From an uncultured delta proteobacterium (GTDB lineage: Bacteria > Desulfobacterota > Desulfobacteria > Desulfobacterales > UBA2156): a DNA stretch of 64,000 nucleotides. Below the pieces are notes generated by a model, which saw only the letters and a list, made by a program, of their open reading frames with translations, was not told where the DNA came from and made no database searches. Of the stretch, positions 13,830 to 53,995 are shown in pieces. Numbering within the stretch: the first letter of the stretch is position 1; each line of letters opens with the position of its first letter. The DNA lies in contig CAVTQK010000009.1 in the NCBI GenBank assembly GCA_963736855.1, positions 384,001-448,000 of the forward strand, in the 5' to 3' direction. Made by a program: the position numbers and the translations under genes.

Positions 13830-13833
13830 TTAT

Positions 13834-13845
13834 TACATTTTTGTA
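13834..13845. promoter_or_regulatory. Palindromic TACA-N4-TGTA site between nfo and the sigma-54 activator gene
   Basis: TACATTTTTGTA; the same motif occurs upstream of the glnD sigma-54 promoter. Confidence 0.45.
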
Positions 13846-13939
13846 TTATCTAAAAAACAGTCGGATACAAAACTTCTTTCCGCGGCATTGGCAAGCCGTG
13901 ATAAAAGGAAACTCGGCAGAATATTCACCGGAGTCTTTG

Positions 13940-17034: not shown

Positions 17035-17143
17035 AAAAGCACCTCCTTTATTGTATGTTATTTGGGTGATGATTCATTTGAAACCGTTCTCGCTCGTTTG
17101 TCATTTCAAATTCATTTGAAACTTTCCCTGTACCGATCTTGCA

Positions 17144-17527
<384 letters not shown>

Positions 17528-18850: not shown

Positions 18851-18872
18851 TTAATGGTTTTGGGTTTTATCT

Positions 18873-21557: not shown

Positions 21558-21605
21558 GCACACTTCGCCTTTGAGTTTCTTTCGAACCAATAACCGGTTC
21601 AATCA

Positions 21606-21621
21606 AGCAAACACCGTGCCA
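21606..21621 (-). promoter_or_regulatory. Sigma-54 (-24/-12) promoter of glnD-amtB-glnK-glnA
   Basis: Minus strand TGGCACGGTGTTTGCT is a perfect TGGCAC-N5-TTGC consensus, about 50 nt upstream of the glnD ATG. Confidence 0.88.
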
Positions 21622-21698
21622 GAAATCATCATGTTCATTTTAATCAAGGACACCTGCATGTTAAGGCTCATTAAATCATAATGAAAACAAAATATAAA

Positions 21699-21742
21699 TT
21701 ACAATTATGTAATAAAAAATGATAAATATTACAAATATGGAA
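21699..21742. promoter_or_regulatory. Putative tandem upstream activator sequences
   Basis: TTACAATTATGTAA (21699-21712) and TTACAAATATGGAA (21729-21742), 30 bp apart, 80-120 bp upstream of the -24 box in AT-rich DNA. Confidence 0.55.
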
Positions 21743-21757
21743 ATAACTTCGGTCCGG

Positions 21758-24658
21758 CTATTCTTCCAGGAGTTCGGTCCAGATGCGGCGAACCCCTTTA
21801 CGGAGCGCGACGAATCGGTCCGATGGAACCCGGTCGGGTTTTTCCTGAAGGTTGAGGCGGTGGAGGGTAGCGCGGTAGGTCAGAAATGCCCTCCTTAAGA
21901 AGTAAGCAGTTTGCTCATCGATGACCCCGCTCTCCATGAGAGACTGAAGGAGACGCACGTTATCGGTCCACTCAACGATCTGCGGATATCGGTTCGCACA
22001 AAGCAACACCAAATACTGGACGAGAAATTCCACATCCACCATTCCGCCCCGGCCTTCCTTGAGGTCGAACATTTCGGGCTCCGGCTTGACGTGTTCCTTA
22101 CGCATGCGTTCCCGCATCTCCCTGATGGCCTTTTTCAGGATGTCTCCCTCCCGGGGCAAGACAAGAATCTCTTTCCGAATCTCTTCGAAGTGCTGCACCA
22201 GGACCGGATCCCCGCCGATGGCTCTGGCGCGAACCAGGGCCTGATGTTCCCAGGTCCACGCCTGTTTCAACTGGTATTCCCGAAACCCCTCGATGTGGCT
22301 GACTAAAATCCCCGAAGCCCCGCTGGGACGAAGGCGCATGTCTATCTCATAAAGCGTTCCGGCCCGGGTGTTCGCGGTTAGGATGTGGATGACCCGCTGC
22401 CCCAAACGAGCAAAAAATTGGACGTTCTCTACGGGGCGGCTGCCCCCGGTTTGTCCTTCGTCCCCGGCATGGATAAATACCAGATCCAGATCCGATCGAT
22501 ACCCCAGCTCAATACCGCCGAGTTTTCCGTAGGCGATCATCACAAATCCCCGATCGCATTTCTTCCCATCCAGGCGGCACCGAGGTTTTCCGTGTTTTTC
22601 CACCAAATGAAGCCATGCCCATTCCAGCACTTCACCCAAAATGACCTCGGCGATGTAAGTCAGATGATCGCTGACCTTCATCAAAGGAAGCACGCCGGTA
22701 ATATCGGATGCCGCTACGCGCAGCATATTGACCTGTTTGAAGATACATAGGTTTTCGATCAAGTACTCAAGGTCTTCGGGGCCCAATGCCGCAATCCGAT
22801 CTTTCAATTCTTTTTGAAGGGCCGCCTTCTGCGGCGGCTTATAGAGGACACGGGTGTCCAGGAGCTCATCCAGCAGCACCGGATGCTGCCGCAGGAAGGC
22901 GGCAATCCATGGGCTGGAGTTGATCAGATTCATGAGATGAGTCAGCGCCGCGGGATTTTCCAGAAGCAGGGCGAGATAACTGGTTCGGCGCTCTATGGTG
23001 CGAACGAGGTCACAAACCCGGCTCAAGGTCGTCAGGGGTGTGTCTCCGCCGGTGATCGCATCGAGAATCATGGGCATCAGGCGGTCCAGCCGCCTGCGCC
23101 CTTCATGACTGAGGGCCCTCGTGGCCGGATCGGCTTTGAGATGATCTAAAATCTTGAGAGCCTGATCCGGATCCGTGAATCCGCTTGCACTCAACACTTT
23201 TCCGGCCCGTTCAGGGCTCATCATTCCCTGCCACACACCCGCGAGGTCGGATAAATGCTCATCCGACCGGGAGGGGGCCATCCGGGCGTCATCGGCCCGG
23301 AAAAGACCCTGGAAATGTCTATGTACGGATCCCCTTTGTTCGTCCAGCCGCCCGGCAAAGGCATTCCAGTCCGGAAAACCCATGGAAACAGCCAACCGCA
23401 GTCGGTTAAGGGATTCTTGGGGAAGCTTATGGGTCTGCTGATCGGAAAACTCCTGCAGTCGGTTCTCCGTTGTTCGAAGAAAAATATATGCTTCGCAAAG
23501 GATCTCACAGGTATTTTGCGAAATGACTCCCTGTTCGGAGAGAATGTGCAACACGTCCATAATCCGGCGGGTTTGCAGGGCGGGGATAACACCGCCGCGG
23601 ATGAGCTGAAAGACTTGTCCGAAAAATTCGATCTCCCGGATCCCCCCAGGACCCAACTTTACATCATCGCCGAGTCCTTTTCTTCTGACCTCCAGGGAGA
23701 TCTTGTGCTTCATATCCCTGAGTGATTCGAATGTGCCGTAATCCAGATACCGCCTGAAGACGAAAGGAGTTAGCCGATGAAGAAGGGCCCTTCCCTCCGC
23801 AATATCCCCGGCCGCGGCCCGGGCCTTGATCCAGGCGTATCGCTCCCATTCACGACCGTGGTTCTGGTAGTAATATTCCATGTTGTCGAAACTCATCACG
23901 ATGGGGCCGTTCTCCCCGTCGGGTCTGAGACGGATGTCCACACGAAAGATGAACCCGTCCGGGGAAGGGTTCCCGAGAAGCCGGATTAGTCGACGGCACA
24001 AGCGGCCGAAAAACTCGTCGTTGCTCATGTCCGTCGCTCCCCCTTGGGTATTGCCCGCTTCCGGAAAAGCGAAAATGAGATCCACATCCGAGGAAAAATT
24101 GAGTTCCTCCCCGCCGAGCTTCCCCATGGCGATGACTGCCAGGGACTGGGGCTCCCCCTTTTTGTTGATCGGAGTCCCACATTCCGTACACTGCCTCTGG
24201 TAGAGAAAAAAGAGGGTCTGATCGATAAGGGTATCTGCCAGGTTTGTCAGTTCTGCCATGGTCGCAAAAAGGTCGGAAAGGCCTAAAAGATCCCTCCATG
24301 CAATCCGAACCATTTCCCGGGACCGAACCCTTCTGAGGGATCGGGCCAGGTCCGATTCGTCGGAAACCCCATCAAAGAAATGCTTCACCCGCAAAGCATA
24401 TTCCGTTTTCGGATACGCCCTGTCCAAATCGCCTGATTGAAATAAATCCATGAGGATTTCCGGATTCCGAAAAGCGCATCGCGTCACAAAATCGCTCATG
24501 GTGAACACACGGGCGGCATCCTCCAGAAATCGGGAAGGAGGGGACATTTGAATTCCGGCATTACGGGCTGCGGTCAGAAATGCCTTCAGCTTCTCCTCCC
24601 CGTCCGATCGGAGAGGCTCGGGGAGGCTTTTCAAGTTTTTCAGGGTTCCCTTTTCCAT
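21758..24658 (-). CDS. glnE: Glutamine synthetase adenylyltransferase/adenylyl-removing enzyme
   Basis: Duplicated NT domains AMGKLGGEELNFSSDVDL and AYGKLGGIELGYRSDLDL, D.RLRP twice, KLGPGGIREIEF. Confidence 0.95.
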   Translation of the reverse strand: MEKGTLKNLKSLPEPLRSDGEEKLKAFLTAARNAGIQMSPPSRFLEDAARVFTMSDFVTRCAFRNPEILMDLFQSGDLDRAYPKTEYALRVKHFFDGVSDESDLARSLRRVRSREMVRIAWRDLLGLSDLFATMAELTNLADTLIDQTLFFLYQRQCTECGTPINKKGEPQSLAVIAMGKLGGEELNFSSDVDLIFAFPEAGNTQGGATDMSNDEFFGRLCRRLIRLLGNPSPDGFIFRVDIRLRPDGENGPIVMSFDNMEYYYQNHGREWERYAWIKARAAAGDIAEGRALLHRLTPFVFRRYLDYGTFESLRDMKHKISLEVRRKGLGDDVKLGPGGIREIEFFGQVFQLIRGGVIPALQTRRIMDVLHILSEQGVISQNTCEILCEAYIFLRTTENRLQEFSDQQTHKLPQESLNRLRLAVSMGFPDWNAFAGRLDEQRGSVHRHFQGLFRADDARMAPSRSDEHLSDLAGVWQGMMSPERAGKVLSASGFTDPDQALKILDHLKADPATRALSHEGRRRLDRLMPMILDAITGGDTPLTTLSRVCDLVRTIERRTSYLALLLENPAALTHLMNLINSSPWIAAFLRQHPVLLDELLDTRVLYKPPQKAALQKELKDRIAALGPEDLEYLIENLCIFKQVNMLRVAASDITGVLPLMKVSDHLTYIAEVILGEVLEWAWLHLVEKHGKPRCRLDGKKCDRGFVMIAYGKLGGIELGYRSDLDLVFIHAGDEGQTGGSRPVENVQFFARLGQRVIHILTANTRAGTLYEIDMRLRPSGASGILVSHIEGFREYQLKQAWTWEHQALVRARAIGGDPVLVQHFEEIRKEILVLPREGDILKKAIREMRERMRKEHVKPEPEMFDLKEGRGGMVDVEFLVQYLVLLCANRYPQIVEWTDNVRLLQSLMESGVIDEQTAYFLRRAFLTYRATLHRLNLQEKPDRVPSDRFVALRKGVRRIWTELLEE

Positions 24659-24738
24659 AAGATTTGCGTTCCCATAAAGGTCAGCGGCAGAAGGGACATG
24701 TAGGACCGCAATCAAAATCTTTTCGTGGAAAAATTGTA

Positions 24739-24767
24739 TTGACAGCTTAGACAATAAAGGTTAAAAG
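24739..24767 (+). promoter_or_regulatory. Probable sigma-70 promoter of the mvhD-metVF-glt operon
   Basis: TTGACA-17 nt-TAAAAG immediately before the structured leader; the -10 is imperfect. Confidence 0.5.
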
Positions 24768-24779
24768 GGCAAGAAATAC

Positions 24780-24838
24780 GACGCACAGTGCCGTGCGTCA
24801 CTTTGTGGCCAATGTCGGCCATACAGACAGGGACGTCT
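24780..24838 (+). promoter_or_regulatory. ANTAR-type antiterminator leader RNA with three hexaloop hairpins
   Basis: GACGCAC-AGTGCC-GTGCGTC; TGGCC-AATGTC-GGCCA; AGAC-AGGGAC-GTCT. Every loop is 6 nt with A1/G4 and a C-G closing pair, and hairpin 3 overlaps the terminator 5' arm. Confidence 0.8.
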
Positions 24839-24873
24839 ACCACTCCAAGGGGGAGGTAGGCGTTTTTTTTTTT
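24832..24873 (+). terminator. Intrinsic terminator (attenuator) in the leader upstream of mvhD
   Basis: GACGTCTACC...GGTAGGCGTT stem followed by a run of 11 T, about 40 nt before the mvhD ATG. Confidence 0.85.
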
Positions 24874-24912
24874 AGCAAAGAACCATCGGGCCTTTTCAGG
24901 GGGAGAGGTAAA

Positions 24913-25398
24913 ATGAAAAAATCCCATAAACTGTCGGTCTTTTTTTGTACCCGCACATTTGAAAATGAATCGGTCTTTTTGCCCAATGCTCCGGATTCTT
25001 TGGAGGTGCGGGGAGTCTCCATGGCATGTTCCAGCATGGTCAAAGACATTTTTTTGCTCAAGGCCTTCGAGGCCGGCGCCGATGCAGTGACCGTGTGGGT
25101 CTGTCCGGAGGGTGCATGCCGGCATGTCGAAGGAAATCTTCGTGCCCGAAAACGGGTAGAACGAGTCAAGGCACTTCTGGAGGCCATCGGCTTTGACAGC
25201 CGGCGCTTGACCTTTTTCAACATGGTCCCTGGAGATCTTGCATCGGCTTCGGACATCCTCGAAGGAATCGTTGCCGCATTCAACATCATCGACGGTAGTG
25301 CTTCGAAGGTATCGGGGTACTGTTTTCCCGGAAATGCCGCCTTGAAGATTCAAAGCACGTTTGGATCCAACCATTCGATTCAAACCGATTTAAGATAA
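24913..25398 (+). CDS. mvhD: MvhD/FlpD-family [2Fe-2S] electron-transfer subunit
   Basis: FFC, MACSSMV...LLKAFEAGADAV..VCPEGACRHVEGNLRA.KRV...LLEAIG...RL; RBS GGAGAGG before ATG 24913. Confidence 0.82.
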   Translation: MKKSHKLSVFFCTRTFENESVFLPNAPDSLEVRGVSMACSSMVKDIFLLKAFEAGADAVTVWVCPEGACRHVEGNLRARKRVERVKALLEAIGFDSRRLTFFNMVPGDLASASDILEGIVAAFNIIDGSASKVSGYCFPGNAALKIQSTFGSNHSIQTDLR

Positions 25399-25412
25399 AG
25401 GAGAATCGATTC

Positions 25413-26081
25413 ATGATTGTCGGCGAACAGAAACCCGTAATGGAAATCCTTCAAATGGTTTCGCCCAATAAGAAGCTCCTTATTTTAGGGTGCGATACCT
25501 GCGTTAAGACGTGTTTTGCCGGTGGCGAAGACGAAGTAACGACGCTGGCTTCGGTTTTGAGATTGGCTTTGAAGACAAAAGGCATTTTCGTTCAAATTGA
25601 AGAATTGACGGTTGAGCGTCAGTGCGAGGATGCTTTTATAGCGGAAGCCGCCGACGCCGTATCTCGTAACGAAGAGGTTCTTTCCCTGGCCTGCGGTGCC
25701 GGGGTACAGGCGGTGGCCCGCAGATTTCCTCGATCTCTGGTGTTGCCAGGCGTCAATACCACTTTCCTCGGAGTATTAGAACGCCGGGGTATGTTCACCG
25801 AAGAGTGCTCCGGGTGCGGGGATTGCCAGCTGGCTGTGTTTGGCGGAGTTTGCCCTTTTACCCGATGCGCCAAAAAGCTGCTCAACGGCCCATGCGGGGG
25901 ATCCCGAAACGGCAAATGCGAGGTGAATGCCGATACGGATTGCGCATGGCATCTCATCATCGAACGGTTGAGCGCCCAGGGGCGCCTGAACCAGCTGAGG
26001 GCCTATGTTCCCCCGAAGCAATGGCAGACCAGCCTTTCCGGAGGTCCCAGAAAATTGATCCGGGAGGATCATGTTATATGA
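25413..26081 (+). CDS. metV: Methylene-THF reductase Fe-S subunit MetV (MTHFR C-terminal domain protein)
   Basis: GCDTCV..C..GG, ERQCE, LACGAG, ECSGCGDC, GVCP.TRCAK.LLNGPCGG, KCEV...CAW. Confidence 0.88.
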   Translation: MIVGEQKPVMEILQMVSPNKKLLILGCDTCVKTCFAGGEDEVTTLASVLRLALKTKGIFVQIEELTVERQCEDAFIAEAADAVSRNEEVLSLACGAGVQAVARRFPRSLVLPGVNTTFLGVLERRGMFTEECSGCGDCQLAVFGGVCPFTRCAKKLLNGPCGGSRNGKCEVNADTDCAWHLIIERLSAQGRLNQLRAYVPPKQWQTSLSGGPRKLIREDHVI

Positions 26082-27001
26082 AGACGGAACCGATCAGCCA
26101 TCTGGAGCGCGTCCTTTCCGAGGGTCGGTTTGCCGTCACTGCGGAATGCGGCCCGCCCCGGGGAGCAAAGGCGGAAGTCATCCGAAAAAAAGGGGCCTTG
26201 CTCAAAGGGGTCGTGGATGCGGTGAACGTCACGGACAACCAGACCGCCATCGTTCGCATGTCCAGCATCAGCTCCTGTGCACATCTCCTTGCACAAGGTT
26301 TAGAACCGGTAATGCAAATGGTGACGCGGGACCGCAATCGCATCGCCTTACAGTCGGACATTCTGGGGGCTTATTCTCTGGGAATTCAAAACATTCTCTG
26401 TCTTTCGGGAGATCACCAGCGCTTCGGCAGCCAACCGGACTCCCTGAACGTCTTCGACATCGACTCCATGAACCTCATCCGCACGGTTTTCACCATGAGA
26501 GAAGAGGGAATGGACATGAGCGGGTACCTTCTTGATGGAGCTCCCCGGATGTATATCGGCGCCGCCGCCAATCCGTTTGCAGACCCCTTCGAGTATCGGG
26601 TCATACGCCTGGCCAAGAAGATTGATGCCGGAGCGGACTTCATCCAGACCCAATGTGTCTATAACCTGGAACGCTTCCGGCAGTGGATGAACATGGCTTC
26701 CGGCGAAGGACTGACCGAGAAGGTGCATATATTGGCAGGTGTCACCCCCATAAAATCCGCCGGGATGGCGCGGTATATGGCCAAAAACGTCGCCGGGATG
26801 GATGTCCCCGAATCGATCATCCGTCGCATGGCCGGAGTTTCAAAAGAAAAGGCCTCGGAAGAAGGGATCACCATTTGTCTGGAGACTGTCGCAGCGCTTC
26901 AGGAGATTTCGGGTGTCCACGGCATCCACATCATGGCCATTGAATGGGAAGAACAGGTCAAGACCATCGTTGAAAGGGCGGGCCTTTTACCGAGGCCTTA
27001 A
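26078..27001 (+). CDS. metF: Methylenetetrahydrofolate reductase
   Basis: VTAECGPP, NVTDNQ, RDRNRIALQSD, LSGDH, KKIDAGADFIQTQ, HIMAI; ATGA overlap with metV. Confidence 0.92.
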   Translation: MKTEPISHLERVLSEGRFAVTAECGPPRGAKAEVIRKKGALLKGVVDAVNVTDNQTAIVRMSSISSCAHLLAQGLEPVMQMVTRDRNRIALQSDILGAYSLGIQNILCLSGDHQRFGSQPDSLNVFDIDSMNLIRTVFTMREEGMDMSGYLLDGAPRMYIGAAANPFADPFEYRVIRLAKKIDAGADFIQTQCVYNLERFRQWMNMASGEGLTEKVHILAGVTPIKSAGMARYMAKNVAGMDVPESIIRRMAGVSKEKASEEGITICLETVAALQEISGVHGIHIMAIEWEEQVKTIVERAGLLPRP

Positions 27002-27012
27002 GGTAATCGAGC

Positions 27013-28425
27013 ATGCCGAAAAAATATCATGTCGCCGTTAAACCCGCTCCGCCGCGGTTCCCCGCCATCGGTAAATATGCGACCATCGAGTTTAAGGAAG
27101 ACTGTGCGGGAAGCTGTCGGGAATGCGTCAAGAAAAAGTGCGTCTACGGTGTATTCAGGGAAACACACGAACATGCATTGAAGATGATCGAACCGGAATA
27201 TTTGTACATCTGTCAGAGTTGTTTTCGATGCGTCCAGGAATGCACCAAGGGAATCTTTTCCCGGGTTATCAACCCGGCGTATCGAAATCTGGGAGACGAC
27301 TATTGGAGCCGGGACATCCTCCATCGCCTTTGGTACCAGGCGCACTTCGGAAAAATTCCGGTCTCCGGCGCCGGCTACCGCGGCCCTTTCACCGGAAAGG
27401 GGTTCGACAATATGTGGACGGACATGTCGGAAATCGTCCGCCCCACCCGTGATGGCATCCACGGCCGGGAGTATATCAATACGTCTATCGAACTTTCCCG
27501 GAGGAACACGTTTTTATCGTTTGCGCCGGATGGCTCGCTGGACTGTGAGCCTCCTCCCATCCTGGAAATCCCGATCCCGGTTCTTTTCCAGTGGCCCGGG
27601 AACATCGTGAAAAATAGATCCCTCATCCTTTCCACTGCCATGGCGGCCGTCGAACTTGGGACTCTGCTATTTCTGGATCCCGAAGACTTTTCCGAAGCGC
27701 TCTACCCTTATGCCGGCAACATAGTTTGCCGGATCAACGGCGACGATTTTTCGGACTTCTTACCTCTTTTACAACAAAGCCGCATGGTGGAAATCTCCGA
27801 TGGCCCAGAGCTTGCCCGCCTCATCGCAGATCTCAGAGAGTTACGGCCGGGGCTTATTGTGGCGGTGGGTGTCCCCCTCACCCCGGAAGCATCATCCACG
27901 GCTGCAAGGCTTGCCGAAGCCGATGTGGATTCGATCCACTTTTATGCCACGGAAAACGGATATGAAAAACATACGGCGTCCCCGCGGTTTCTCAAGGATT
28001 GTATCCGATCCGTTCACCTCGAACTCGTGGACCATTCCCTACGCCAAAAGGTCAACCTCCTTTTTTCAGGAGGGATCGCAATGGCCGAACACATGGCCAA
28101 GGCCATCATCTGCGGCGCGGATGGAGTCGTCGCAGACACCGTTTTACCGGTAGCCCTGGAGTGCCGCCTGTGTTCCCGGTGCCGGGAAGGTCTCTCCTGT
28201 CCGGTGAAGCTTGACGATGTCATCAATCCTCAATGGGGGAAGCAGCGCATCGTTAATCTAATGGGTGCCTGGCACGGCCAACTACTGGAGGTCATGGGCG
28301 CCATGGGTATCCGGGAAACCCGCAGGATCCGGGGAGAGATCGGCCGATCGATGCATTTCTACGAGCTGGAAAGAGAAATTTTCGGCCCCATTTTCGGGGA
28401 AAGAAAAGTGCCGGAGTGTGCTTAA
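27013..28425 (+). CDS. Glutamate synthase-related Fe-S/barrel subunit with degenerate FMN and 2-oxoglutarate motifs
   Basis: N-terminal Cys clusters (CAGSCRECVKKKC; CQSCFRCVQEC), GAGY.GPF.G.GFD, SGGI...AKAI.CGAD, ECRLCSRC, EVMGAMG; lacks the MSFGS and QGAKPG motifs. Confidence 0.75.
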   Translation: MPKKYHVAVKPAPPRFPAIGKYATIEFKEDCAGSCRECVKKKCVYGVFRETHEHALKMIEPEYLYICQSCFRCVQECTKGIFSRVINPAYRNLGDDYWSRDILHRLWYQAHFGKIPVSGAGYRGPFTGKGFDNMWTDMSEIVRPTRDGIHGREYINTSIELSRRNTFLSFAPDGSLDCEPPPILEIPIPVLFQWPGNIVKNRSLILSTAMAAVELGTLLFLDPEDFSEALYPYAGNIVCRINGDDFSDFLPLLQQSRMVEISDGPELARLIADLRELRPGLIVAVGVPLTPEASSTAARLAEADVDSIHFYATENGYEKHTASPRFLKDCIRSVHLELVDHSLRQKVNLLFSGGIAMAEHMAKAIICGADGVVADTVLPVALECRLCSRCREGLSCPVKLDDVINPQWGKQRIVNLMGAWHGQLLEVMGAMGIRETRRIRGEIGRSMHFYELEREIFGPIFGERKVPECA

Positions 28426-28426
28426 A

Positions 28427-29980
28427 ATGGAAGTTCAAGCGGTTGAACAACACGTTTTGCCGGAAACCCGAGTAACGCCGTCGCGCTTTCGCAACCCCAT
28501 AGGCAAGCACATGATCATCCGAAGCGATCGATGCACCAACTGCGGGCTTTGCGCGACCCTTTGCCCTTACGATGTGCACCCCGAATACGATGCGTATTCA
28601 CGAGCCCTCAAGCCGAGGAGTCATCGCTGCATCGGTTTTTCCTGCCGACAAAACGATTTTTATTGCATCGAACAGTGTCCTGAAGAGGCCCTGACGCTTA
28701 AATTCAACCCGATCCTGGAGACGTTGGGAGACTTTCGCTGGTCTGCCGAAATGCTCATCGGTCACTGGGAAATGGCTGAAACCGGGCGCTTGCCCTTGGT
28801 TGACCTGGAATATAACTTGGGTTGTTCCGGAGGCGGATTCGATAAAATGCGGTTCCGATACCCGGACCCTGAAGCCTATCTGGATCTTCCGGATGAGGCC
28901 ATCGACACCGAGATCGACCTTAACCGGCGCAGGGACGGCCGTCCCGATAAGAGACTCTCCCTCCCCTGTTACGGCGGCGGTATGTCCTTCGGTTCCACCG
29001 CTTTGTCGGTTATCGTCGGCAGGGCCCGCGCCGCCAAGCGTCTCAACACGCTGACTTGCACGGGAGAGGGGGGATACCCGGTGGAATTCATCCCTTACGC
29101 TGACCATGTCATCACTCAGGTCGCCACCGGTCTGTTCGGCGTCCGGGAAGAGACCATCCTTTTTGCTCCCGTGGTGGAATTCAAGTATGCCCAGGGAGCC
29201 AAACCGGGTTTGGGGGGTCATCTTCTAGGAGACAAGGTCACTCCCGAAGTGGCCGCCATGCGAGGGACCGTGGTGGGTAACGCCCTCTTTTCACCCTTCC
29301 CGTTTCACAGTGTCTACTCAGTAGAAGACCATAAAAAACATGTAGACTGGGTCAAGGAAATCAATCCCAGGGCACTGATTTCGGTAAAGGTCTCCACACC
29401 TACGGACGTGGATATGGTGGCGGTGGGGAGTTACTATGCCGGAGCCCACATCATCCATCTGGACGGAAGTTACGGCGGCACCGGCGCTGCCCCCGACATC
29501 GCCAAAAAGAACATCGCCATGCCCATCGAGTATGCCATTCCCAAGGTACACCGATTCTTGATCCAGGAAGGCGTCCGAGATGAGATCTGTCTCATCGCCA
29601 GCGGTGGAATCCGGAATGCCATGGATGTGGCCAAGGCCATCGCTTTGGGAGCGAACGGGGTGGTCATCGGCACAGCAGAACTGGTGGCACTGGAGTGCGT
29701 TCGATGCGGAAACTGTGAAAGCGGCCGGGGTTGCGCCCGGGGCATCGCCACCACCGACCCGGAGCTAGGAAGCATGATCGCCGAAGAGTGGGCCGAACAG
29801 CGCATCGTCAACATGTATTCGGCATGGCGAAAACAATGGTGCTCTCTTTTGAGACAGTGCGGACTCAAGAGCATCAATGAATTGGTGGGACGGACAGATC
29901 TTCTTGTCCATCTCGATTATCTGGACGAGGCCGAATGCGCCACCTATGCGCCGTCACCTCAAGGACAGGTGATCATCTGA
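28427..29980 (+). CDS. Glutamate synthase FMN-binding (synthase) subunit with N-terminal ferredoxin domain (GltB2-type)
   Basis: CTNCGLCATLCP, GMSFGS, TGEGG, QVATGLFG, EFKYAQGAKPGLGGHL.G.KV, DG..GGTGAAP, ASGGIR, C..C..CESGRGC.RGIAT. Confidence 0.9.
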   Translation: MEVQAVEQHVLPETRVTPSRFRNPIGKHMIIRSDRCTNCGLCATLCPYDVHPEYDAYSRALKPRSHRCIGFSCRQNDFYCIEQCPEEALTLKFNPILETLGDFRWSAEMLIGHWEMAETGRLPLVDLEYNLGCSGGGFDKMRFRYPDPEAYLDLPDEAIDTEIDLNRRRDGRPDKRLSLPCYGGGMSFGSTALSVIVGRARAAKRLNTLTCTGEGGYPVEFIPYADHVITQVATGLFGVREETILFAPVVEFKYAQGAKPGLGGHLLGDKVTPEVAAMRGTVVGNALFSPFPFHSVYSVEDHKKHVDWVKEINPRALISVKVSTPTDVDMVAVGSYYAGAHIIHLDGSYGGTGAAPDIAKKNIAMPIEYAIPKVHRFLIQEGVRDEICLIASGGIRNAMDVAKAIALGANGVVIGTAELVALECVRCGNCESGRGCARGIATTDPELGSMIAEEWAEQRIVNMYSAWRKQWCSLLRQCGLKSINELVGRTDLLVHLDYLDEAECATYAPSPQGQVII

Positions 29981-30042
29981 ACCGCTTACAAAAATGCGGG
30001 ACACAACCTGCAGCCATTCACGACAGGGAGTTCAAGACATCC

Positions 30043-32727
30043 ATGGAACCAAGAGCATCCATCATCGACAACCTCTTCAGGTCTCGAAAAAACCTCCCCC
30101 GGCCGAAAGGAGACCATGAAGAGCCTGCCGAAGAAGGCGGGTGCGGGGTTACCGGGTTCATCGCGTCGGTACCGGTATCCGGCCGCCATATCTACGAACC
30201 CTCGGTCCAGATGCATAACCGGGGTAACGGAAAGGGAGGGGGTATCGCCGCCGTGGGCATTTCCGCCGAAAGCCTGGGGGTTCCCCAGAACATCCTGGAT
30301 ACCCATTACCTGCTTCAGATTGCCCTCCTTGACCCGGAATCTCGAAAAAGCGTGGAAGCGGGCTATATCGACGGGCTTCTGGAAGTATACAAAGCCGAAA
30401 AAGTGCCCACCATGGAAAATTATCGCGATGTGGAAGGCCTTACGATCCGGCCGCCCGACGTGTGGCGTTATTTCGTTCGCGTGAAACCGGCGCACCTGGA
30501 TCGGTTTATGACCGAAAACAACCTTCAGGGTATGGACCCCTTGAGGGCCGAGGACGAATTCATCAACCAAAATTCCTTTCGACTCAACCGGGAATTTTAC
30601 GCCTCCACGGGGAAACAGCACGCATTCGTCCTTTCTCACGGAAAAAACATCATGGTCCTCAAGATCGTGGGATATGCCGAACAAGTCGCCCGGTACTACC
30701 TTCTGGAAGACTTCAAGGCTCACGGCTGGATCGCCCATCAGCGTTATCCCACCAAGGGTCGAGTATGGCATCCCGGCGGCGCACACCCTTTCATCGGAAT
30801 GCACGAAGCCCTGGTTCACAACGGTGACTTTGCAAACTATCATGCCGTCAGTGAATACCTTAAGCAGCATGGCATCCTTCCGCTCTTTCAGACGGATACG
30901 GAGGTCTCCATCCTCCTTTTCGACCTGTTGAACCGAACTTTCGGATATCCGCTGGAATACATTATCGAGGCCATGGCACCCACAACGGAATATGATTTCG
31001 ACCTTTTACCTCCCGATAAACAGCGAATTTATCGGCATATCCAATCATGTCACCTGGCGTCGTCTCCGGACGGCCCCTGGTTTTTCATCATCGCCCGAAA
31101 CGACGTGTGTAAGAAGCGCTTTCAACTGATCGGCATCACCGATACCGCCATGCTCAGACCCCAGGTTTTTGCCCTTCAGGAAGACGAAGTTCAAATCGGC
31201 TTGATCTGTTCGGAAAAGCAGGCCATCGATGCAACACTTCAAAGCCTTTCATCGGAAGACCCCCGCTTCGAGCCTATTGCGGATCGGTATTGGAATGCCC
31301 GGGGTGGAAGTGCCGCGGACGGGGGGGCCTTCATCTTTTCAGTCACGGACACGGAGGGGAAGGATAGCGGAAAACGGTTGACATGCACCAATAAATTCGG
31401 GGAACCGGTCAGGATCAACGGACATCTGACATCTTCTGCCGGAGCGATCCGCCTGACCGGGCCGACGGCCGACATGATTTTTAAAGAAGCATTTGAAAAG
31501 CCGACCTCCGGCTCCGTAGAAACGCTGATGGCACGCTGCCGAGAATTTTTGGGCACATGCGACGAGGATGGGCTCCGGGCTTTTTGCAGAAAACTCGAGG
31601 CAGCGGCTAAAAGCGGTGATTTCGAAAAAGAAAGAGGAATTGAAATATTATCTCATCTCATGGACCATCGCTTTCCCCTTGGACAAAAAAGGCGATGCAC
31701 CGTGCTGCGGATTCTCCGGGAAAGCCTTTCCGCCATTTTCGATGCATCTGCAAGGCTTGTAGAATCGGGCTCCGGCGCATACCGATACATCGACTGGTCT
31801 CTTCGCCACACTATCCGGGAGCCCCGAGACGGAGAAAGCACACTGGTGATCCACACCGAAGCGTTTCCGGCCGAGGGAGAAGAATGTGATGCCACTTTCA
31901 TTCGTCGCGCCTATCATTTGGGATGGAAAAGGTTCATCTGTTATGGGTATCGGGGACAGCGGTTTTGTGGGTGCGGGCTTTCAAAAGGATCCGACGGCGT
32001 CCGGATCGATGTGTATGACAACCCGGGGGATTACCTCGCCTCCGGCATCGACGGCCTGGAAATGGTCGTACATGGCAACGGCCAAGATCAGATCGGCCAG
32101 ATCATGAATAGCGGAAAGCTGGTGATCTACGGGGACGTGGGCCAGACCTTCATGTACGGTGCCAAAGGGGGAGAAGTCTACATCATGGGAAATGCCGCCG
32201 GCCGCCCCCTCATCAATGCCGTAGGTTCTCCCAAAGTCGTCATCAACGGCACCTGCCTCGACTATCTGGCAGAATCCTTCATGGCCGGCGATCCTCTGAA
32301 AGGAGGCGGCTTCGTGGTTTTAAACGGTATTCGGTTCAATGCAGTCGGAAAGATCGTCAACCACGATACCCCGTACCCCGGTTCCAATCTCTTCTCCTTG
32401 GCCTCCGGTGGCGCCATCTATGTCCGGGATCCTTTCAAAAAAGTGGTCCCCGATCAACTCAACGGGGGCGAACTGGTAAGACTTTCACCCGAAGACTGGA
32501 GATTGATCCTTCCGTTTTTGAAGGAAAATGAAAGGCTTTTCGGGATCTCCGTGGAAAACGACCTGCTGAAGGTCAACGGAGAAGCCAGGCCCTATCACGA
32601 GGTTTATCGGAAGGTACAGGCGGTTCCCCTGGATGTTTTATCCAAGGCTCCCGTCTCCCTTGAAGAATGGGGAGAAGACTGGAAAGATGAGGTCGGCACC
32701 GATCGTTTTCAGGTTGATTTAAATTAG
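30043..32727 (+). CDS. Glutamate synthase amidotransferase plus GXGXG subunit (GltB1+GltB3 fusion)
   Basis: Ntn Cys after a propeptide (EEGG|CGVTG), MHNRG, AHQRYPT, AHPF, HNGD, TDTE, DGPW; C-terminal GXGXG repeats (GNGQDQIG, GDVGQTFMYGAKGG, GNAAGRP). Confidence 0.9.
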   Translation: MEPRASIIDNLFRSRKNLPRPKGDHEEPAEEGGCGVTGFIASVPVSGRHIYEPSVQMHNRGNGKGGGIAAVGISAESLGVPQNILDTHYLLQIALLDPESRKSVEAGYIDGLLEVYKAEKVPTMENYRDVEGLTIRPPDVWRYFVRVKPAHLDRFMTENNLQGMDPLRAEDEFINQNSFRLNREFYASTGKQHAFVLSHGKNIMVLKIVGYAEQVARYYLLEDFKAHGWIAHQRYPTKGRVWHPGGAHPFIGMHEALVHNGDFANYHAVSEYLKQHGILPLFQTDTEVSILLFDLLNRTFGYPLEYIIEAMAPTTEYDFDLLPPDKQRIYRHIQSCHLASSPDGPWFFIIARNDVCKKRFQLIGITDTAMLRPQVFALQEDEVQIGLICSEKQAIDATLQSLSSEDPRFEPIADRYWNARGGSAADGGAFIFSVTDTEGKDSGKRLTCTNKFGEPVRINGHLTSSAGAIRLTGPTADMIFKEAFEKPTSGSVETLMARCREFLGTCDEDGLRAFCRKLEAAAKSGDFEKERGIEILSHLMDHRFPLGQKRRCTVLRILRESLSAIFDASARLVESGSGAYRYIDWSLRHTIREPRDGESTLVIHTEAFPAEGEECDATFIRRAYHLGWKRFICYGYRGQRFCGCGLSKGSDGVRIDVYDNPGDYLASGIDGLEMVVHGNGQDQIGQIMNSGKLVIYGDVGQTFMYGAKGGEVYIMGNAAGRPLINAVGSPKVVINGTCLDYLAESFMAGDPLKGGGFVVLNGIRFNAVGKIVNHDTPYPGSNLFSLASGGAIYVRDPFKKVVPDQLNGGELVRLSPEDWRLILPFLKENERLFGISVENDLLKVNGEARPYHEVYRKVQAVPLDVLSKAPVSLEEWGEDWKDEVGTDRFQVDLN

Positions 32728-32828
32728 GATTGTGTTATAAAGGGACAGCTCCGGAAAAACCTGCCTCCTTTTTCCAAAGCGGCAAAACTTTCAGTCAAAA
32801 CAAAGAATTATTAGGTTTATTAGGATCC

Positions 32829-33974
32829 ATGAACGGACTTCTCGCACTGGAAGACGGCCGGACGTTCTCCTGCCGTTCCTTTACCGGACCCGGTGAGTGT
32901 TCGGGCGAAATCGTTTTTAACACCAGCATGACAGGATACCAGGAGATCCTGACCGACCCGTCCTACCGGGGACAGATGGTCGCTATGACCTACCCCCTCA
33001 TCGGCAATTACGGAGTCAATCCGGAAGACGTGGAGTCGAATGGAATCCAGGTCAGTGGATTTTTTGTCCGGGAATATCAGCACCAATTTAGCAATTTCCG
33101 GGCTTCCGGTACATTGTCCGATTACCTTGCCGCCCAGGGCGTCCTTGGGATGGAAGGGATCGACACCCGGGCATTAACCCTGCACATCCGAAGCCGGGGG
33201 GCCATGCGCGCCGTGGTCTCCACAACCGATCCCGATCCGGCATCGCTGGTTCAAAAAGCAAAGGCCATACCCTCCATGGCCGGCTGTGATCTAGTTACCG
33301 GCGTTACCACCCAAAGACCTTATTTCTGGTTTCAAGGAAAATCAGTCCCTCTGCCCATGGGAGAAAAAGCCTTTCTCCCGGCGATCTGGGGGCCCAGAGA
33401 TGCCCGGTTTCGGGTCGTCGCCTTCGATTACGGCATTAAGTACAATATCTTAAGATCGCTGGAACATGTGGGGTGTCAGGTGCTGATTGTGCCGGCCGCA
33501 ACCCCGGCTGCCGCCATTCGGGACCTGGAACCTGACGGTATTTTCCTTTCCAACGGCCCCGGGGATCCGGAGCCGGTCACCTATGCCGTCAAAACCATTC
33601 AAAATCTCATGGGGTATCGTCCCATTTTTGGGATCTGTCTGGGGCATCAACTATTAGGACTGGCTTTGGGTGGTAAAACCTATAAATTGAAATTCGGCCA
33701 TCGGGGCGCCAACCAACCGGTAAAGAACCTGTTGTCGGGGCGTGTGGAAATCACATCACAGAATCACGGTTTTGCCGTGAACATCCAAACCCTCGAAAGC
33801 AAGGACATTGAAATAACCCACATCAACCTCAACGATAATACGCTGGAGGGATTTCGTCATCGAAAGCTTTCAGTCCTTGCGGTTCAATACCATCCGGAAG
33901 CATCTCCGGGGCCCCATGACGCCCGTTATCTCTTTGGTGTCTTCAAGGAGATGATGACACGAAATAAAGGGTAA
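32829..33974 (+). CDS. carA: Carbamoyl-phosphate synthase small subunit
   Basis: LALEDG, EIVFNTSMTGYQE..TDPSY, LSNGPGDP, GICLGHQ, HPEASPGP. Confidence 0.96.
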   Translation: MNGLLALEDGRTFSCRSFTGPGECSGEIVFNTSMTGYQEILTDPSYRGQMVAMTYPLIGNYGVNPEDVESNGIQVSGFFVREYQHQFSNFRASGTLSDYLAAQGVLGMEGIDTRALTLHIRSRGAMRAVVSTTDPDPASLVQKAKAIPSMAGCDLVTGVTTQRPYFWFQGKSVPLPMGEKAFLPAIWGPRDARFRVVAFDYGIKYNILRSLEHVGCQVLIVPAATPAAAIRDLEPDGIFLSNGPGDPEPVTYAVKTIQNLMGYRPIFGICLGHQLLGLALGGKTYKLKFGHRGANQPVKNLLSGRVEITSQNHGFAVNIQTLESKDIEITHINLNDNTLEGFRHRKLSVLAVQYHPEASPGPHDARYLFGVFKEMMTRNKG

Positions 33975-34013
33975 AGATTTTTTCTCGAAAAGGCAGACAT
34001 CGAACTTACGCAT

Positions 34014-37000
34014 ATGCCTAAACGCACCGACATCGAAAAAATACTGATCATCGGCGCCGGCCCCATCATCATCAGCCAGGCCTGCGAGTTCGACTATTCG
34101 GGGACCCAGGCCTGCAAGGCGCTCATGGAGGAAGGGTACCGAATCACCCTGATCAACAGCAATCCGGCCACCATCATGACCGACCCGGAAATGGCACATC
34201 GCACCTATGTGGAACCCATCACCCCTGAAATGGTTACTAAAATCATCGAAAAGGAGCGGCCGGACGCGCTGTTGCCCACTCTTGGCGGACAGACCGGTCT
34301 CAACACGGCCATCCGTGTCGCCCGAATGGGTGTTTTGGATCGATTCGGCGTGGAGATGATCGGAGCATCGGTGGCCTCCATCCAGAAGGCCGAGGATCGG
34401 GACCTGTTTCGCAAATCCATGGAACGGATCGGGCTTCGGATACCCAAAAGCGGGATCGCCATCCAAACTCAGCAATGTTTCGATATTGCCGAAAAGATCG
34501 GTTTCCCCATCATCCTGCGACCCAGCTTCACTTTAGGCGGGACTGGCGGCGGCATCGCCTATAATTTCGAAGACCTGGAAAACCTTGCCAAAGCCGGGTT
34601 GGATGCCAGCCTCATCGGCCAGATCATGCTGGAAGAGTCGGTCCTGGGGTGGAAAGAATATGAACTGGAGGTCATGCGGGATAAAAACGACAACGTGGTC
34701 ATCGTCTGCTCCATTGAAAACCTGGATCCCATGGGGATCCACACCGGCGACAGCATCACCGTCGCGCCTGCGCAGACCCTGAGCGATAAAGAGTATCAGG
34801 AGATGCGGGACGCTTCCATCGCGATCATGCGGGAGATCGGAGTGGACACGGGGGGTTCCAACGTCCAGTTTGCCGTCAATCCGAAAAATGGGGAAATGGT
34901 GGTGGTGGAAATGAACCCCAGGGTCTCCCGGAGCAGCGCGCTGGCTTCCAAAGCCACCGGCTTTCCCATCGCCAAGATCGCTGCAAAGCTGGCGGTGGGG
35001 TACACCCTCGATGAGATTCCCAATGACATCACCGGAGAAACACTGGCCTCCTTCGAGCCGACCCTGGATTATTGCGTGGTGAAAATTCCCCGATGGACCT
35101 TTGAAAAATTCCCGGAAACGCAAGATCTTTTGACCACCTCCATGAAATCCGTGGGAGAAACCATGGCCATCGGCCGAACCTTCAAAGAAGCCCTGCAAAA
35201 AGGTATCCGGTCTCTGGAAATCGGCCGTTTTGGACTCGGAGCCGACGGAAAGGATCCTGAGTGGATTCATTCAGATCCCGTTGGTGAAGCTGCGAAAAAG
35301 GCGATTCGGGACGAAATCGAACAAAAATTGGTCATCCCCAACTCCAAGCGTCTTTTCTATCTCCGATATGCAATGGAAAAGGGATTCTCCATCTCTACTC
35401 TGTACGAACTGACCCGGATCGATCCATGGTTTTTATACCAGATCGAACAAATTGTCTCCCTGGAAAAGCGCCTTAAAAATGAGGGCCGCCTCCAACCGAA
35501 TTCCGGACCAAATGAAGCCTTTTTCACCCCGGAGCTTCTCCGGGAGGCAAAATCTTTCGGATTTTCAGATATCCAGCTTGCCCAATTATCCGGTCTCGAT
35601 GAGGACCGGATCCGACAGATTCGCAAACGCTGGGGTATCACCCCCGTCTTCAAGCTCGTCGATACCTGCGCGGCTGAATTTCAGGCCGCCACGCCCTATT
35701 TTTACTCCACGTATGATATGGAAGACGAGGCGAGGGTTTCCGATAGAAAAAAGGTGATGATCCTGGGGGGTGGTCCCAACCGCATCGGTCAGGGGATCGA
35801 GTTTGATTATTGCTGCGTACATGCGTCTTTTGCTCTCCGGGAAGAAGGATTCGAAAGCATCATGGTCAACAGCAATCCCGAAACCGTGAGCACCGATTAC
35901 GATACTTCGGACAAGCTCTATTTCGAACCGCTGACCCGAGAAGATGTCCTTAACATCATCGATAAAGAAAAGCCCTTGGGTGTCATTGTCCAGTTCGGAG
36001 GACAGACGCCGCTCAACCTTTCCGAGCCGCTCTTTAATGCCGGCGTCCCCATCCTGGGTACCCAGCCGGAGAGCATCGACCGGGCCGAGGACCGAAAGCT
36101 CTTCCAGGAGATGTTGCGCAAATTATCCTTGACTCAGCCGGCGAATGGGACCGCCATGTCTGTAAACGAGGCGATAACCGTGGCGGAGACCATCGGGTAT
36201 CCCGTCATCGTCCGGCCTTCCTATGTCCTGGGAGGCAGGGCCATGAAAATCGTGTACGAACGGGAAAGCCTGGAGGCTTTTGCACACCTGGCTCTTGTGG
36301 AATCTTTCGGACATCCTATTCTCATCGACCAGTTCCTGGAAGACGCCATCGAGGTTGATGTAGATGCTCTTTCAGACGGAAAAGATACGGTCATCGGCGG
36401 CATCATGGAACACATCGAAGAGGCCGGAGTACACTCCGGAGATTCGGCTTGCGTATTGCCCCCCTATAGCCTCCCCGCCGCTCTCCAGGATGAAATCGTA
36501 AAGGCCACCAAGGCCTTAACCGCTGAACTCCATGTCGTCGGGCTCATGAACGTTCAGTATGCCATCAAAGACAACCGGTTGTTTGTCCTGGAAGTCAACC
36601 CGAGGGCTTCCCGGACCGTCCCTTTTGTGAGCAAGGCCACCGGTGTCCCTCTGGCAAAATTGGCCACCAAGGTGATGCTCGGAAAGACACTGCGGGACCT
36701 GGGCTTGACCCAGGAGATCATCCCTTCCCATGTTTCGGTCAAAGAGGCGGTCTTTCCCTTTGATCGGTTTCCGGACGTGGACACCCTCCTCGGTCCGGAG
36801 ATGAAATCCACCGGCGAGGTGATGGGCCTCGATATCGATTTCGGGTCCGCCTATGCCAAAGCCCAATTGGGCGCGGGACAAAAACTCCCTCTTTCGGGAA
36901 CAGTATTTATCAGCGTGAAAAACCGGGACAAGGCATCGGTACTTCCTTTGGCCAAGCGGTTTTTGGCCTTGGGATTCGATATCATTGCCACCCGGGGTAC

Positions 37001-37316
37001 TGCTCGTCTTCTGGCGGAAAATGGAATTGCCGCCCGTCGGATTTCCAAAGTCTCCATGGGGCGTCCCCATGTGGTGGATGCCGTCAAAAACGGGGAAATC
37101 CAGCTCATCATCAACACGGGAATCGGGGGGGATACCCGGCGAGACGGCTACATCATCCGTCGAAACGCCCTCAAATACAACATCCCATATGCCACCACCA
37201 TCGCCGGAGCGATTGCCATCAGCAGGGGGATCGAAATGATGATTCAAAAGGAACTGTCCGTCAAGGCATTGCAAGACTACCACCTCGAGATTTCTAAGGG
37301 AGGCGCAGCCAATTGA
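34014..37316 (+). CDS. carB: Carbamoyl-phosphate synthase large subunit
   Basis: [16 protein letters not shown], duplicated ATP-grasp halves, [16 protein letters not shown]-terminal MGS domain. Confidence 0.98.
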
Positions 37317-38761
37317 CTCCAATCGATTCGATAGTCAAAGAGGATCTTTTCTCGCCCTTCAAAGGGCCCAGGGAAGCCTGCGGCCTCTTCGGTATTTTCG
37401 GTCATCCCGATGCTTCGAAGCTTACCTATTTCGGCCTGTATGCCCTCCAACATCGAGGGCAGGAAAGCGCGGGTATCTGCGTCGCAGGCGATCAGGGTAT
37501 CGTCACCCACAAGGGAATGGGTCTGGTCCCTGATGTCTTTGACATGGCGCTTCTGGAACAATTGAAAGGAGAATGCGCCATCGGCCATGTGCGCTACTCC
37601 ACCACAGGAAGCTCAATTCTGGTCAATGCCCAGCCCTTCATGGTCCGGCATCGCAATCGATCCTACGCGGTGGCCCACAACGGGAATCTCGTCAACGCCC
37701 ATCGGCTGAAAAGCGAACTGGAGGAAAGCGGGTCCATTTTCCAGACCACCATGGACAGCGAGATTTTCCTCCACCTTTTTGTCAAGAACCTCAAACATGG
37801 ATTCGAAGGAGCGCTGATCAAGACACTCAAACGTCTGGAGGGTGCATATTCCTTCGTGGTCTTGACCAGCAACGGCGAAGTGATCGGCATCAAGGATCCC
37901 AACGGCTTCAGGCCCCTTTGCCTGGGAAAGGCCAACGGCGCCTTCGTGCTGGCCTCAGAATCATGCGCCCTGGACCTGGTTCAGGCCGAGTATATCCGGG
38001 AACTCGATCCCGGAGAGATCGTGATCATCGGAAAAGACGGGGTCAAAAGCATCCAGACGACACCGGCGGAAAATCGCTCTTTCTGTATTTTCGAATTCAT
38101 CTACTTCGCGCGACCGGACAGCAACATCTACGGACAAAACGTCTACCAGGTCCGTAAGGCCCACGGCGTCCGGCTGGCCAAAGAAGCCCCTGTGGACGCC
38201 GATCTGGTGATGCCCTTTCCGGACTCCGGTACCTATGCCGCCATCGGGTATGCCGAAGCCTCGGGAATCCCGTTTGAGTTAGGTATGATCCGGAATCATT
38301 ACGTCGGCAGGACCTTTATTCAGCCCACCCAGAGCATGCGGGATTTCGGCGTTCGGGTAAAATTGAACCCCATTAAAGAGTTGCTGACCGGCAAGGAGAT
38401 CGTCATCATCGAGGATTCCATTATCCGAGGAACCACTGCGAAAACGCGCGTGAAGGCGCTACGGGAGCTGGGCGTCAAGAAGATTCATATGCGGGTGGCA
38501 GGTCCTCCACACCGTTTCCCCTGCCATTACGGCATCGATTTTTCCACCAAGGGAGAATTGATCGCGGCCTCCAAATCCATCAAGGAGCTGACGCAATACC
38601 TGGGACTCGATTCCCTGTACTATCTCAGCCTGAAAGGGCTGCTGGAAGCCACCGGCGTTGAAGACCCTGAAACCCATTTCTGCAAGGCCTGTTTTGACGG
38701 GTGCTACCCGGTCACATTCGATACGGATGTCTCCAAGGATTGTCTCGAAAAGGGCCTGTAG
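37313..38761 (+). CDS. purF: Amidophosphoribosyltransferase
   Basis: REACGLFG Ntn Cys, [31 protein letters not shown] loop, Fe-S cysteines FCKACF. Confidence 0.97.
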
Positions 38762-51753: not shown

Positions 51754-51800
51754 CAACTTAATAAATGCTATCCCGGAAAGCTATGAAGGAGGAAACGATC

Positions 51801-53961: not shown

Positions 53962-53995
53962 ATTCATCCCACGATGTGTGGTCTTGCAGAACGAA

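Follow-up and report, generated by a model that had tools for sequence, protein, structure and literature searches.

We found that an operon of six genes in the genome of an uncultured delta proteobacterium most likely encodes an undescribed form of glutamate synthase (GOGAT), an enzyme by which ammonia nitrogen enters amino acids. In this form, a folate-reductase module connected through a small Fe-S adaptor would stand in for the usual subunit that reads NADPH. The operon lies in a 64,000-nt stretch, here called the window, that covers positions 384,001–448,000 of contig CAVTQK010000009.1 (assembly GCA_963736855.1, forward strand), and consists of mvhD, metV, metF, two genes for synthase-type barrels (gene 4, barrel A; gene 5, barrel B) and a gene for a glutaminase fused to a beta-helix (gene 6). 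For the glutamate synthases characterised so far, the electron source is NAD(P)H or ferredoxin (PMC8097209). Coordinates are those of the window unless a prefix is given, where G000 stands for the host genome, C-numbers for its contigs and L-numbers for compared loci. The gaps of 14, −4, 11, 1 and 62 nt from which the original prediction had derived a tight unit were reproduced exactly by the open reading frame (ORF) coordinates. Its claim that gltD, hdrA and hydrogenase genes are absent from the window agreed with a Pfam scan, in which they were matched by 0 of 54 ORFs (14 + 40; five further ORFs of 79–122 aa were outside the scan).

Synthase core and folate-reductase module

By its sequence, the catalytic core carries the features of a GltB-type N-terminal nucleophile (Ntn) glutaminase, a flavin mononucleotide (FMN)/2-oxoglutarate barrel and a GXGXG beta-helix. 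Gene 5 matched the GltS protein of Azospirillum brasilense (1ea0/2vdc) with an E value of 1.3e-48 and keeps equivalents, counted from the alignment, of its E886, Q909, K931, Q934, K937, R957 and E978, which are residues of the FMN/2-oxoglutarate barrel. The key motifs were 99–100% conserved over 157 rows, and two loop positions that differ from A. brasilense GltS (E940 to L262 and Q943 to H265) are both invariant within the family. The three cysteines of the [3Fe-4S] cluster of GltS align in gene 5 together with a fourth invariant cysteine (C424, C427, C430 and C436), because of which the cluster of this barrel could be [4Fe-4S]. In gene 6, a candidate nucleophile, Cys34, follows a propeptide, the cysteine motif being found in 127 of 129 rows and the other Ntn motifs in 98–100%. 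The glutaminase domain gave GlmS/PurF-type matches and was too divergent to match the GltB glutaminase domain. An in-frame ATG lies upstream of this gene at 29935, and most homologues align from residues 1–8 of the start at 30043.

Gene 4, whose barrel the original prediction had not recognised as lacking the catalytic motifs, is paralogous to gene 5 over its full length (probability 100%, 409 columns); in gene 4 ~44 residues of the catalytic loop are missing, while eight ferredoxin cysteines and the four-Cys barrel cluster motif are retained. Natural fusions of genes 4 and 5 are frequent: 8000 candidates yielded 815 matches to longer proteins, of which the 120 listed are 968–1069 aa long and have synthase-barrel domains. 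The AlphaFold model of one of them, P0004 (predicted local distance difference test score, pLDDT, 88; predicted template modelling score, pTM, 0.92; 117-row alignment), represents a relative's protein, 49% identical to gene 4, and not the window's own. This two-barrel model overlaid residues 448–1184 of 1ea0 over 637 residues (Z 33.6, root-mean-square deviation 3.5), and single barrels aligned with 1ea0 over ~290 residues (Z up to 24.9). Since the central and synthase domains of A. brasilense GltS span residues 423–780 and 781–1202 (PMC8097209) and the model extends over both, gene 4 is predicted to occupy the position of the GltB central domain, packed on the synthase barrel.

Judged by their cofactor ligands, the three upstream genes encode MetF, MetV and MvhD counterparts of those in type IV methylene-tetrahydrofolate reductase (MTHFR; tetrahydrofolate is abbreviated THF below). 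Residues C12, C39, C64 and C69 of MvhD, which is of a divergent type relative to Hdr-associated MvhDs, were invariant in 95 of 95 rows, and 13 cysteines of MetV were retained in 111–112 of 112 rows. In MetF, D112 and Q192 align with solved MTHFRs and E23 is likewise intact; the three residues were retained in 107 of 112 rows, a set that includes the host's two other MetFs and counts two genomes twice. The five exceptions all come from hdr-containing operons. Among ten such operons inspected, the MetF Asp was lost in seven, and it was also lost in L214, whose contig ends early; this tendency fits MetF as a working donor where Hdr is absent. The stricter statement that MetF always degenerates if Hdr is present was weakened by L203–L205. 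In a MetF tree built by a quick method from 75 of the 112 rows (the careful search was unfinished and there was no broad outgroup), the operon MetF fell in a group of 37 rows (support 98) that did not include the host's two other MetFs; lacking that outgroup, the tree does not establish a dedicated synthase-linked MetF clade. MetF is unlikely to stand in for GltD by oxidising NADH, given that MetVF has no NADH site (PMC8760232) and that the folate residues are intact.

From the six-protein complex that had been suggested for structure prediction, we modelled three chains, gene 4 (residues 1–462), gene 5 (92–500) and MvhD (5–125), with 95-row alignments each, and MvhD is predicted to dock on the ferredoxin domain of barrel A. 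The complex score was 0.66 (runs of 0.66, 0.71 and 0.46), compared with 0.00 for the best of three controls; of solved complexes, 116 of 157 reach the mark for this score, and of mismatched pairs 2 of 215. The runs agreed in at least 91% of contacts with a partner pLDDT of at least 82, and the predicted interface joins the gene 4 ferredoxin domain to MvhD residues 35–54 and 70–84, including Cys39.

Conserved linkage and an exchangeable upstream module

The close set of loci comprised the best 80 of 147 confirmed gene 4 relatives, with counts made by eye. At 60 of these, mvhD-metV-metF lay directly upstream of the core; 18 loci were cut by contig ends, L019 had mvhD-metV only and L014 had none of the three. 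The order mvhD-metV-metF-barrel A-barrel B-glutaminase was thereby found at 60 of the 62 informative close loci, and an arrangement that recurs in this way is not due to chance. Because the close loci are nearest matches only, we added an evenly drawn sample of 301 genomes from the phylum, 91 of which contained the synthase core (all listed matches scoring above 100 bits were taken, 91 in number; apart from G000, they come from 90 genomes). The linkage for which the original prediction had proposed a neighbourhood survey was conserved in this sample as well, with mvhD-metV-metF directly upstream at 38 of the 91 loci. The others had mvhD only (19), mvhD-metV (6), mvhD or mvhD-metF with hdr genes (10), a flavin adenine dinucleotide (FAD) dehydrogenase (12) or no module (1), and five were cut off; mvhD was in the operon at 73 of the 86 loci with visible upstream DNA. 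A MetF at least 58% identical was encoded elsewhere in 18 of 19 mvhD-only genomes and 7 of 7 mvhD-metV genomes.

The alternative gene in the upstream slot encodes a FAD_binding_4/FAD-oxidase/4Fe-4S protein whose solved relatives include LctD, D-lactate dehydrogenase and glycolate oxidase, with alkyl-dihydroxyacetone phosphate synthase scoring equally. At 6 of the 12 loci it forms an in-frame fusion with the barrels, and four of the six fusions are one ~2530-residue chain that includes the glutaminase and the beta-helix; the fusion loci mostly adjoin glnA. Where the FAD gene is free, five of six genomes had no MetVF-type MetF (best 27–31%); these come from two families. On its gene content, the upstream slot is an electron-input slot that holds either the FAD dehydrogenase or MvhD, the latter alone, accompanied by MetV or MetVF, or together with Hdr. 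Weak searches for MvhD-MetV, MvhD-barrel or MetF-barrel fusions found none: that for MvhD fusions gave one 266-aa protein only, and no MvhD, MetV, MetF or FAD part was seen in the 120 listed gene 4-5 fusions. No named cultured strain was among the 120 best proteins listed.

We also sampled 201 genomes from a second phylum, that of G301 (Dehalococcoidales), where nine matched. At the seven loci examined, the core was preceded by mvhD-metF at two, fused as FAD-barrel A at one (L219) and without an adjacent module at four. At L216–L218, which are among these last, barrel B seems to be without most of its ferredoxin domain.

Ordinary GltB, for which a check had also been proposed, was rare where the operon occurs: it was found in 5 of the 91 phylum-sample genomes with the core and in 58 of the 210 without it. 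Acetyl-CoA synthase (ACS) was matched in 78 of the 91 and 125 of the 210, respectively, and in 35 of the 38 genomes with the six-gene form. GltD near the relatives' loci was judged from flanking-gene lists only.

The host genome (100% complete, 2.8% contamination) encodes DsrA, ACS, Fhs and FolD, and the closest named relatives of its operon are Desulfobacterales genomes. Its single GXGXG match is gene 6, the GltB central domain (PF04898) was not found in it at 1e-20, and its one further synthase-type barrel is an orphan on contig C17; for these reasons the operon is the host's only complete glutamate synthase set. The orphan (G000:C17:91600-93252, 550 aa) is without glutaminase or beta-helix neighbours, and at 3 of the 80 close loci, L019 and L021 among them, a similar gene lies near the operon. 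On another contig, the gene most like gltD is paired with a PyrK-like gene, and we read this pair as NfnAB.

A second metVF, which had been suggested as a point to check, was represented by separate metF copies and Hdr-linked mvhD and metV genes. The two other MetFs are 60–63% identical to the operon MetF, and further copies of metV and mvhD, several in all, lie elsewhere, some of them next to Hdr-like genes; the genome also has an hdrC-hdrB-hdrA-mvhD-metV run on contig C12 (labels by sequence likeness) and many HdrA-like genes. The other metF genes lie in G000:C6:133928-145526, one preceded by a large HdrA-like gene, mvhD and metV, and the second located behind a metV fragment and adjoining insertion-sequence-like ORFs. 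The genes for ACS and carbon monoxide dehydrogenase at G000:C9:73957-77500 are in several short frames (245–336 aa), perhaps through frameshifts or assembly errors, and an HdrA/MvhD-like region (C9:581186-588512) is likewise in pieces.

Electron donor and alternative explanations

In the mechanism that we propose, gene 6 would hydrolyse glutamine and the ammonia would be transferred to 2-oxoglutarate inside the FMN barrel of gene 5, with gene 4 as a non-catalytic partner barrel whose N-terminal ferredoxin domain would be the electron entry port. MvhD would sit on this domain as it does on HdrA in Hdr complexes, and MetV would in turn contact MvhD. MetF would oxidise methyl-THF to methylene-THF and, provided that the cofactors are those expected from the ligands, electrons would run from MetF through MetV, the [2Fe-2S] cluster of MvhD and the gene 4 ferredoxin domain to the FMN of gene 5, for a net reaction of methyl-THF + glutamine + 2-oxoglutarate to methylene-THF + 2 glutamate. 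Reduced ferredoxin may be needed as well, entering through the ferredoxin domain of gene 5, which could admit a second, low-potential electron and which is absent from the giant FAD fusions. That methyl-THF reduces the synthase in this way, with or without ferredoxin as a co-input, is a reading that we slightly favour. Of the same route in the original prediction, the linkage and the MvhD dock found support. MetF is not the constant partner: metF is not beside the synthase at 25 of the 91 loci, and 12 have the FAD dehydrogenase. Since mvhD alone (19), mvhD-metV (6) and the FAD dehydrogenase (12) also fill the slot, methyl-THF coupling would be just one version of a modular enzyme.

The NADPH-dependent GOGAT reaction has a free energy of −45 to −50 kJ/mol and, computed with this general value, methyl-THF-driven glutamate synthesis would come to −22 to −27 kJ/mol overall. 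The methylene-/methyl-THF couple lies at −200 mV (PMC9430772, PMC8760232). A number of observations weigh against methyl-THF as the donor. The FMN of A. brasilense GltS lies at −240 mV, or −270 mV with 2-oxoglutarate, and its first one-electron step at about −300 to −330 mV (PMC8097209); these potentials being below −200 mV, reduction of the FMN would be uphill, and MetVF enzymes run from reduced ferredoxin in vitro. Three of the 38 six-gene genomes had no ACS match, the MetF Asp was retained in 3 of the 10 Hdr-containing operons, a MetVF-type MetF is encoded in all six genomes with giant FAD fusions as well, and L171 and, in the second phylum, L215–L218 show no input module. The host also has glutamate dehydrogenase and the NfnAB-type GltD homologue, which could act in trans. 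The docking pass may reflect likeness to the MvhD-HdrA complexes that have been solved (PMC13518236), and, in contrast to the calibration, it was obtained from alignments of our own and from three truncated chains, with MetV and the gene 5 ferredoxin domain outside the model. Finally, the compared genomes are kin and the counts overstate their independence, so no P value is given.

The main alternative, already raised in the original prediction as a shared Fe-S input and possible though less likely, is that MetVF and the synthase are supplied together, forming with MvhD a single Fe-S-wired assembly whose electrons come from reduced ferredoxin or from an HdrA whose gene lies elsewhere, with methylene-THF and 2-iminoglutarate both as sinks. 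The in vitro activity of MetVF with reduced ferredoxin, gene 5's own ferredoxin domain, the hdr genes in the same operon at 10 of the 91 loci and the host's many HdrA-like genes would all suit such an assembly, as would the low-potential donor favoured by the GltS FMN potentials. However, the host already has two other MetFs, so that the presence of a third, under a nitrogen-type leader, would have to be explained, and the frequent loss of the folate Asp with Hdr (7 of 10) fits a replaced donor better than a kept sink; exchange for, and fusion with, a FAD dehydrogenase likewise suggests that the slot holds donors. Mere co-regulation appears improbable: here MvhD would adapt the synthase to some other donor, and metVF would be a passenger making methyl-THF for biosynthesis under nitrogen-assimilation induction. 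The loci with mvhD alone or mvhD-metV speak for it, and the failure of the weak fusion searches is consistent with it. Against it, the gene order is the same in many families and in two phyla, with metV and metF placed after mvhD and before gene 4, the six loci with metV and no metF suggest a MetV-MvhD-synthase link, and 25 of the 26 genomes with mvhD-only or mvhD-metV loci encode a MetVF-type MetF elsewhere.

We regard as slightly more improbable still that the enzyme is not an assimilatory GOGAT and either oxidises glutamate to reduce methylene-THF or uses another amine, like N-methylglutamate synthase. The two family-invariant loop substitutions in gene 5 and the divergence of gene 6 from the GltB glutaminase domain would be in keeping with another reaction. 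Against this stand the neighbouring glnA, glnK, amt, glnD, glnE and nrpR genes, the rare co-occurrence of the core with ordinary GltB and the conserved equivalents of K931, K937, R957, E886 and E978; glutamate oxidation to reduce methylene-THF would also be uphill on the general energies used above. The N-methylglutamate synthase MgsABC is clustered with gmaS and mgdABCD and is not known to use an external electron chain. In a comparison that covered neighbouring genes and motifs, no gmaS/mgdABCD-like neighbours were recognised in the window, and many Fe-S motifs are present.

More broadly, the chances seem to us evenly balanced that the family represents a third class of glutamate synthase, in addition to those that depend on pyridine nucleotides or ferredoxin, present in about three in ten of the sampled phylum genomes. 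Plug-in donor modules would deliver electrons to one ferredoxin port, from methyl-THF via MvhD-MetVF, from a 2-hydroxyacid-like substrate via the FAD dehydrogenase, or from Hdr. Such a class would allow the use of weak donors unable to reduce NAD+, possibly by confurcation with ferredoxin, would give organisms with a reverse Wood-Ljungdahl pathway a downhill oxidation of methyl-THF, and would keep as an intact second barrel the duplication from which the GltB central domain may have come.

Leader, neighbourhood and relation to known systems

The single leader that had been noted upstream of the six genes is present, and its nature as a structured attenuator had been overlooked. By its hairpins and terminator (Table 1) it is of the ANTAR target type; its fold had a z score of −5.7, with 0 of 200 shuffles as stable, and an Rfam search of the leader gave three matches, all far below gathering scores. 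A genome scan for the motif gave 11 matches, compared with 0 and 3 in two block shuffles, and among the 11 only the operon leader had 7-bp upstream stems. Upstream of mvhD, the motif passed in 33 of 129 regions, among them that of the window. With full stems, the linkers are 6 nt (hairpins 1–2) and 2 nt (2–3), and those of eut leaders are 5–12 nt (PMC3369931). One ANTAR gene was found in the host (G000:C15:676382, E 2.9e-19), with matches in 0 of 14 control genomes; its 241-aa product (G000:C15:675683-676408, L202:1474-2199), encoded beside pyrG, has an N-terminal sensor-like domain, presumably GAF. As one ANTAR-type leader precedes mvhD, mvhD-metV-metF probably share control with the synthase, and the operon may respond to nitrogen status.

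The promoter candidate was conserved in the four closest relatives, and a strict consensus sigma-70 scan did not list it. A sigma-70 and terminator scan of 24400-34100 gave hits at chance level and overlooked the leader terminator. The sigma-54 motif was absent from the operon leader and present in 10 of the 129 upstream regions.

Table 1. Features of the operon, its leader and its surroundings
Feature	Position	Strand	Basis
mvhD (gene 1), MvhD/FlpD-type [2Fe-2S] adaptor	24913..25398	+	Pfam FlpD/MvhD, 76.6 bits
metV (gene 2), Fe-S subunit of methylene-THF reductase	25413..26081	+	PF12225, 122.5 bits
metF (gene 3), MetVF-type flavoprotein	26078..27001	+	PF02219 (MTHFR), 135.3 bits
Barrel A (gene 4), 8-Cys ferredoxin domain and non-catalytic synthase barrel	27013..28425	+	Glu_synthase, 55.1 bits
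Barrel B (gene 5), 8-Cys ferredoxin domain and FMN/2-oxoglutarate barrel	28427..29980	+	Glu_synthase, 293.8 bits, plus ferredoxin
Gene 6, Ntn glutaminase fused to GXGXG beta-helix	30043..32727	+	GATase_6, 27.1 bits; GXGXG (PF01493), 47.2 bits
Possible sigma-70-type promoter	24739..24766	+	Perfect -35 hexamer at 24739, weak -10
ANTAR-type antitermination leader	24781..24873	+	Three hexaloop hairpins, A at loop position 1, G at 4
Leader hairpins	24781-24798, 24805-24822, 24825-24838	+	Motif scan
Intrinsic terminator	24832-24864, then 11-T run	+	5' arm overlapped by third hairpin
Nitrogen island glnE, glnD, amt, glnK (P-II), glnA, divergent from operon	15619..24754	-	Pfam
carA, carB, purF, glutamine-consuming, directly downstream of operon	32832..38761	+	Pfam
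Members of the 430–930 aa neighbour family	L021:4099-5400, L049:2648-3985, L079:11697-14501, L116:12528-15116

Among the genes around the operon, the carA family was found at 23 of the 80 close loci, mostly immediately downstream. At the far end of the nitrogen island, a GAF and sigma-54 activator gene (13772-15463, +), convergent with glnA, is a possible regulator, and NrpR-type nitrogen regulator genes adjoin the operon in distant genomes (L130:3872-5089, L125, L163, L164, L169, L196 and L214). A radical SAM gene (38779-39774, +) follows purF, with a similar gene at 6 of the 80 close loci. A family of 430–930 aa proteins with a conserved N-terminus adjoins the operon at 9 of the 80 close loci and at several distant loci. 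Further along the window (50989-60958, +) is a run of fabG, acp, fabF, rpiB, glyA, deaminase, nrdR and riboflavin genes and nusB, where glyA would consume methylene-THF, the product of the proposed reaction.

All four alpha-subunit domains of A. brasilense GltBD (1ea0, 2vdc, 6s6s) and Synechocystis ferredoxin-GltS (1llw, 1ofd) were matched here, but the core, GltB-like as it is by sequence, fits neither GltBD nor type IV MTHFR. It is split into three genes in a permuted order without GltD, each barrel has a ferredoxin domain and a four-Cys motif where the known enzymes have one [3Fe-4S] site, the equivalent of the central domain is a full-length paralogue of the synthase barrel, and the input is MvhD-MetVF, Hdr or FAD dehydrogenase. 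In bacterial NADPH-GltS, gltD belongs to the operon and the alpha subunit is one chain of 150 kDa; neither applies here. Archaeal split glutamate synthases generally have one barrel. Those enzymes, including putative F420-dependent forms with FrhB paralogues (PMC9012536), have separate glutaminase, barrel and beta-helix modules and a swapped electron-input subunit in common with the present operon, which differs in its two barrels, its glutaminase fused to the beta-helix and its MvhD/MetVF input. The same mvhD-metV-metF run with conserved ligands occurs in the type IV MTHFR HdrCBA-MvhD-MetVF of Moorella thermoacetica and Sporomusa ovata (PMC8760232, PMC9430772), but here there is no hdrABC in the operon or the window, MvhD is divergent and predicted to have the synthase ferredoxin domain as its partner, and the leader is of a nitrogen type. 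ANTAR target RNAs have A1/G4 hexaloop hairpins, the last overlapping a terminator, and stand mostly before nitrogen genes (PMC3369931); the leader shares these features with those of EutV, NasR and AmiR and has three hairpins.

Our literature search, which had subscription journals and supplements outside its reach, found no description of the operon, and the available parts of PMC5736913, PMC7325909, PMC9012536, PMC6085437 and PMC2702500 do not describe the cluster. The family bears on the origin of the GltB central domain by barrel duplication, which is left open as a possibility in PMC8097209 and asserted in PMC5011417. If the proposed coupling is true, it would be a new reaction by which sulfate reducers, which are widespread, and related anaerobes link one-carbon to nitrogen metabolism, possibly drawing from the former the electrons for nitrogen assimilation, and MvhD would have a new role as a general adaptor.

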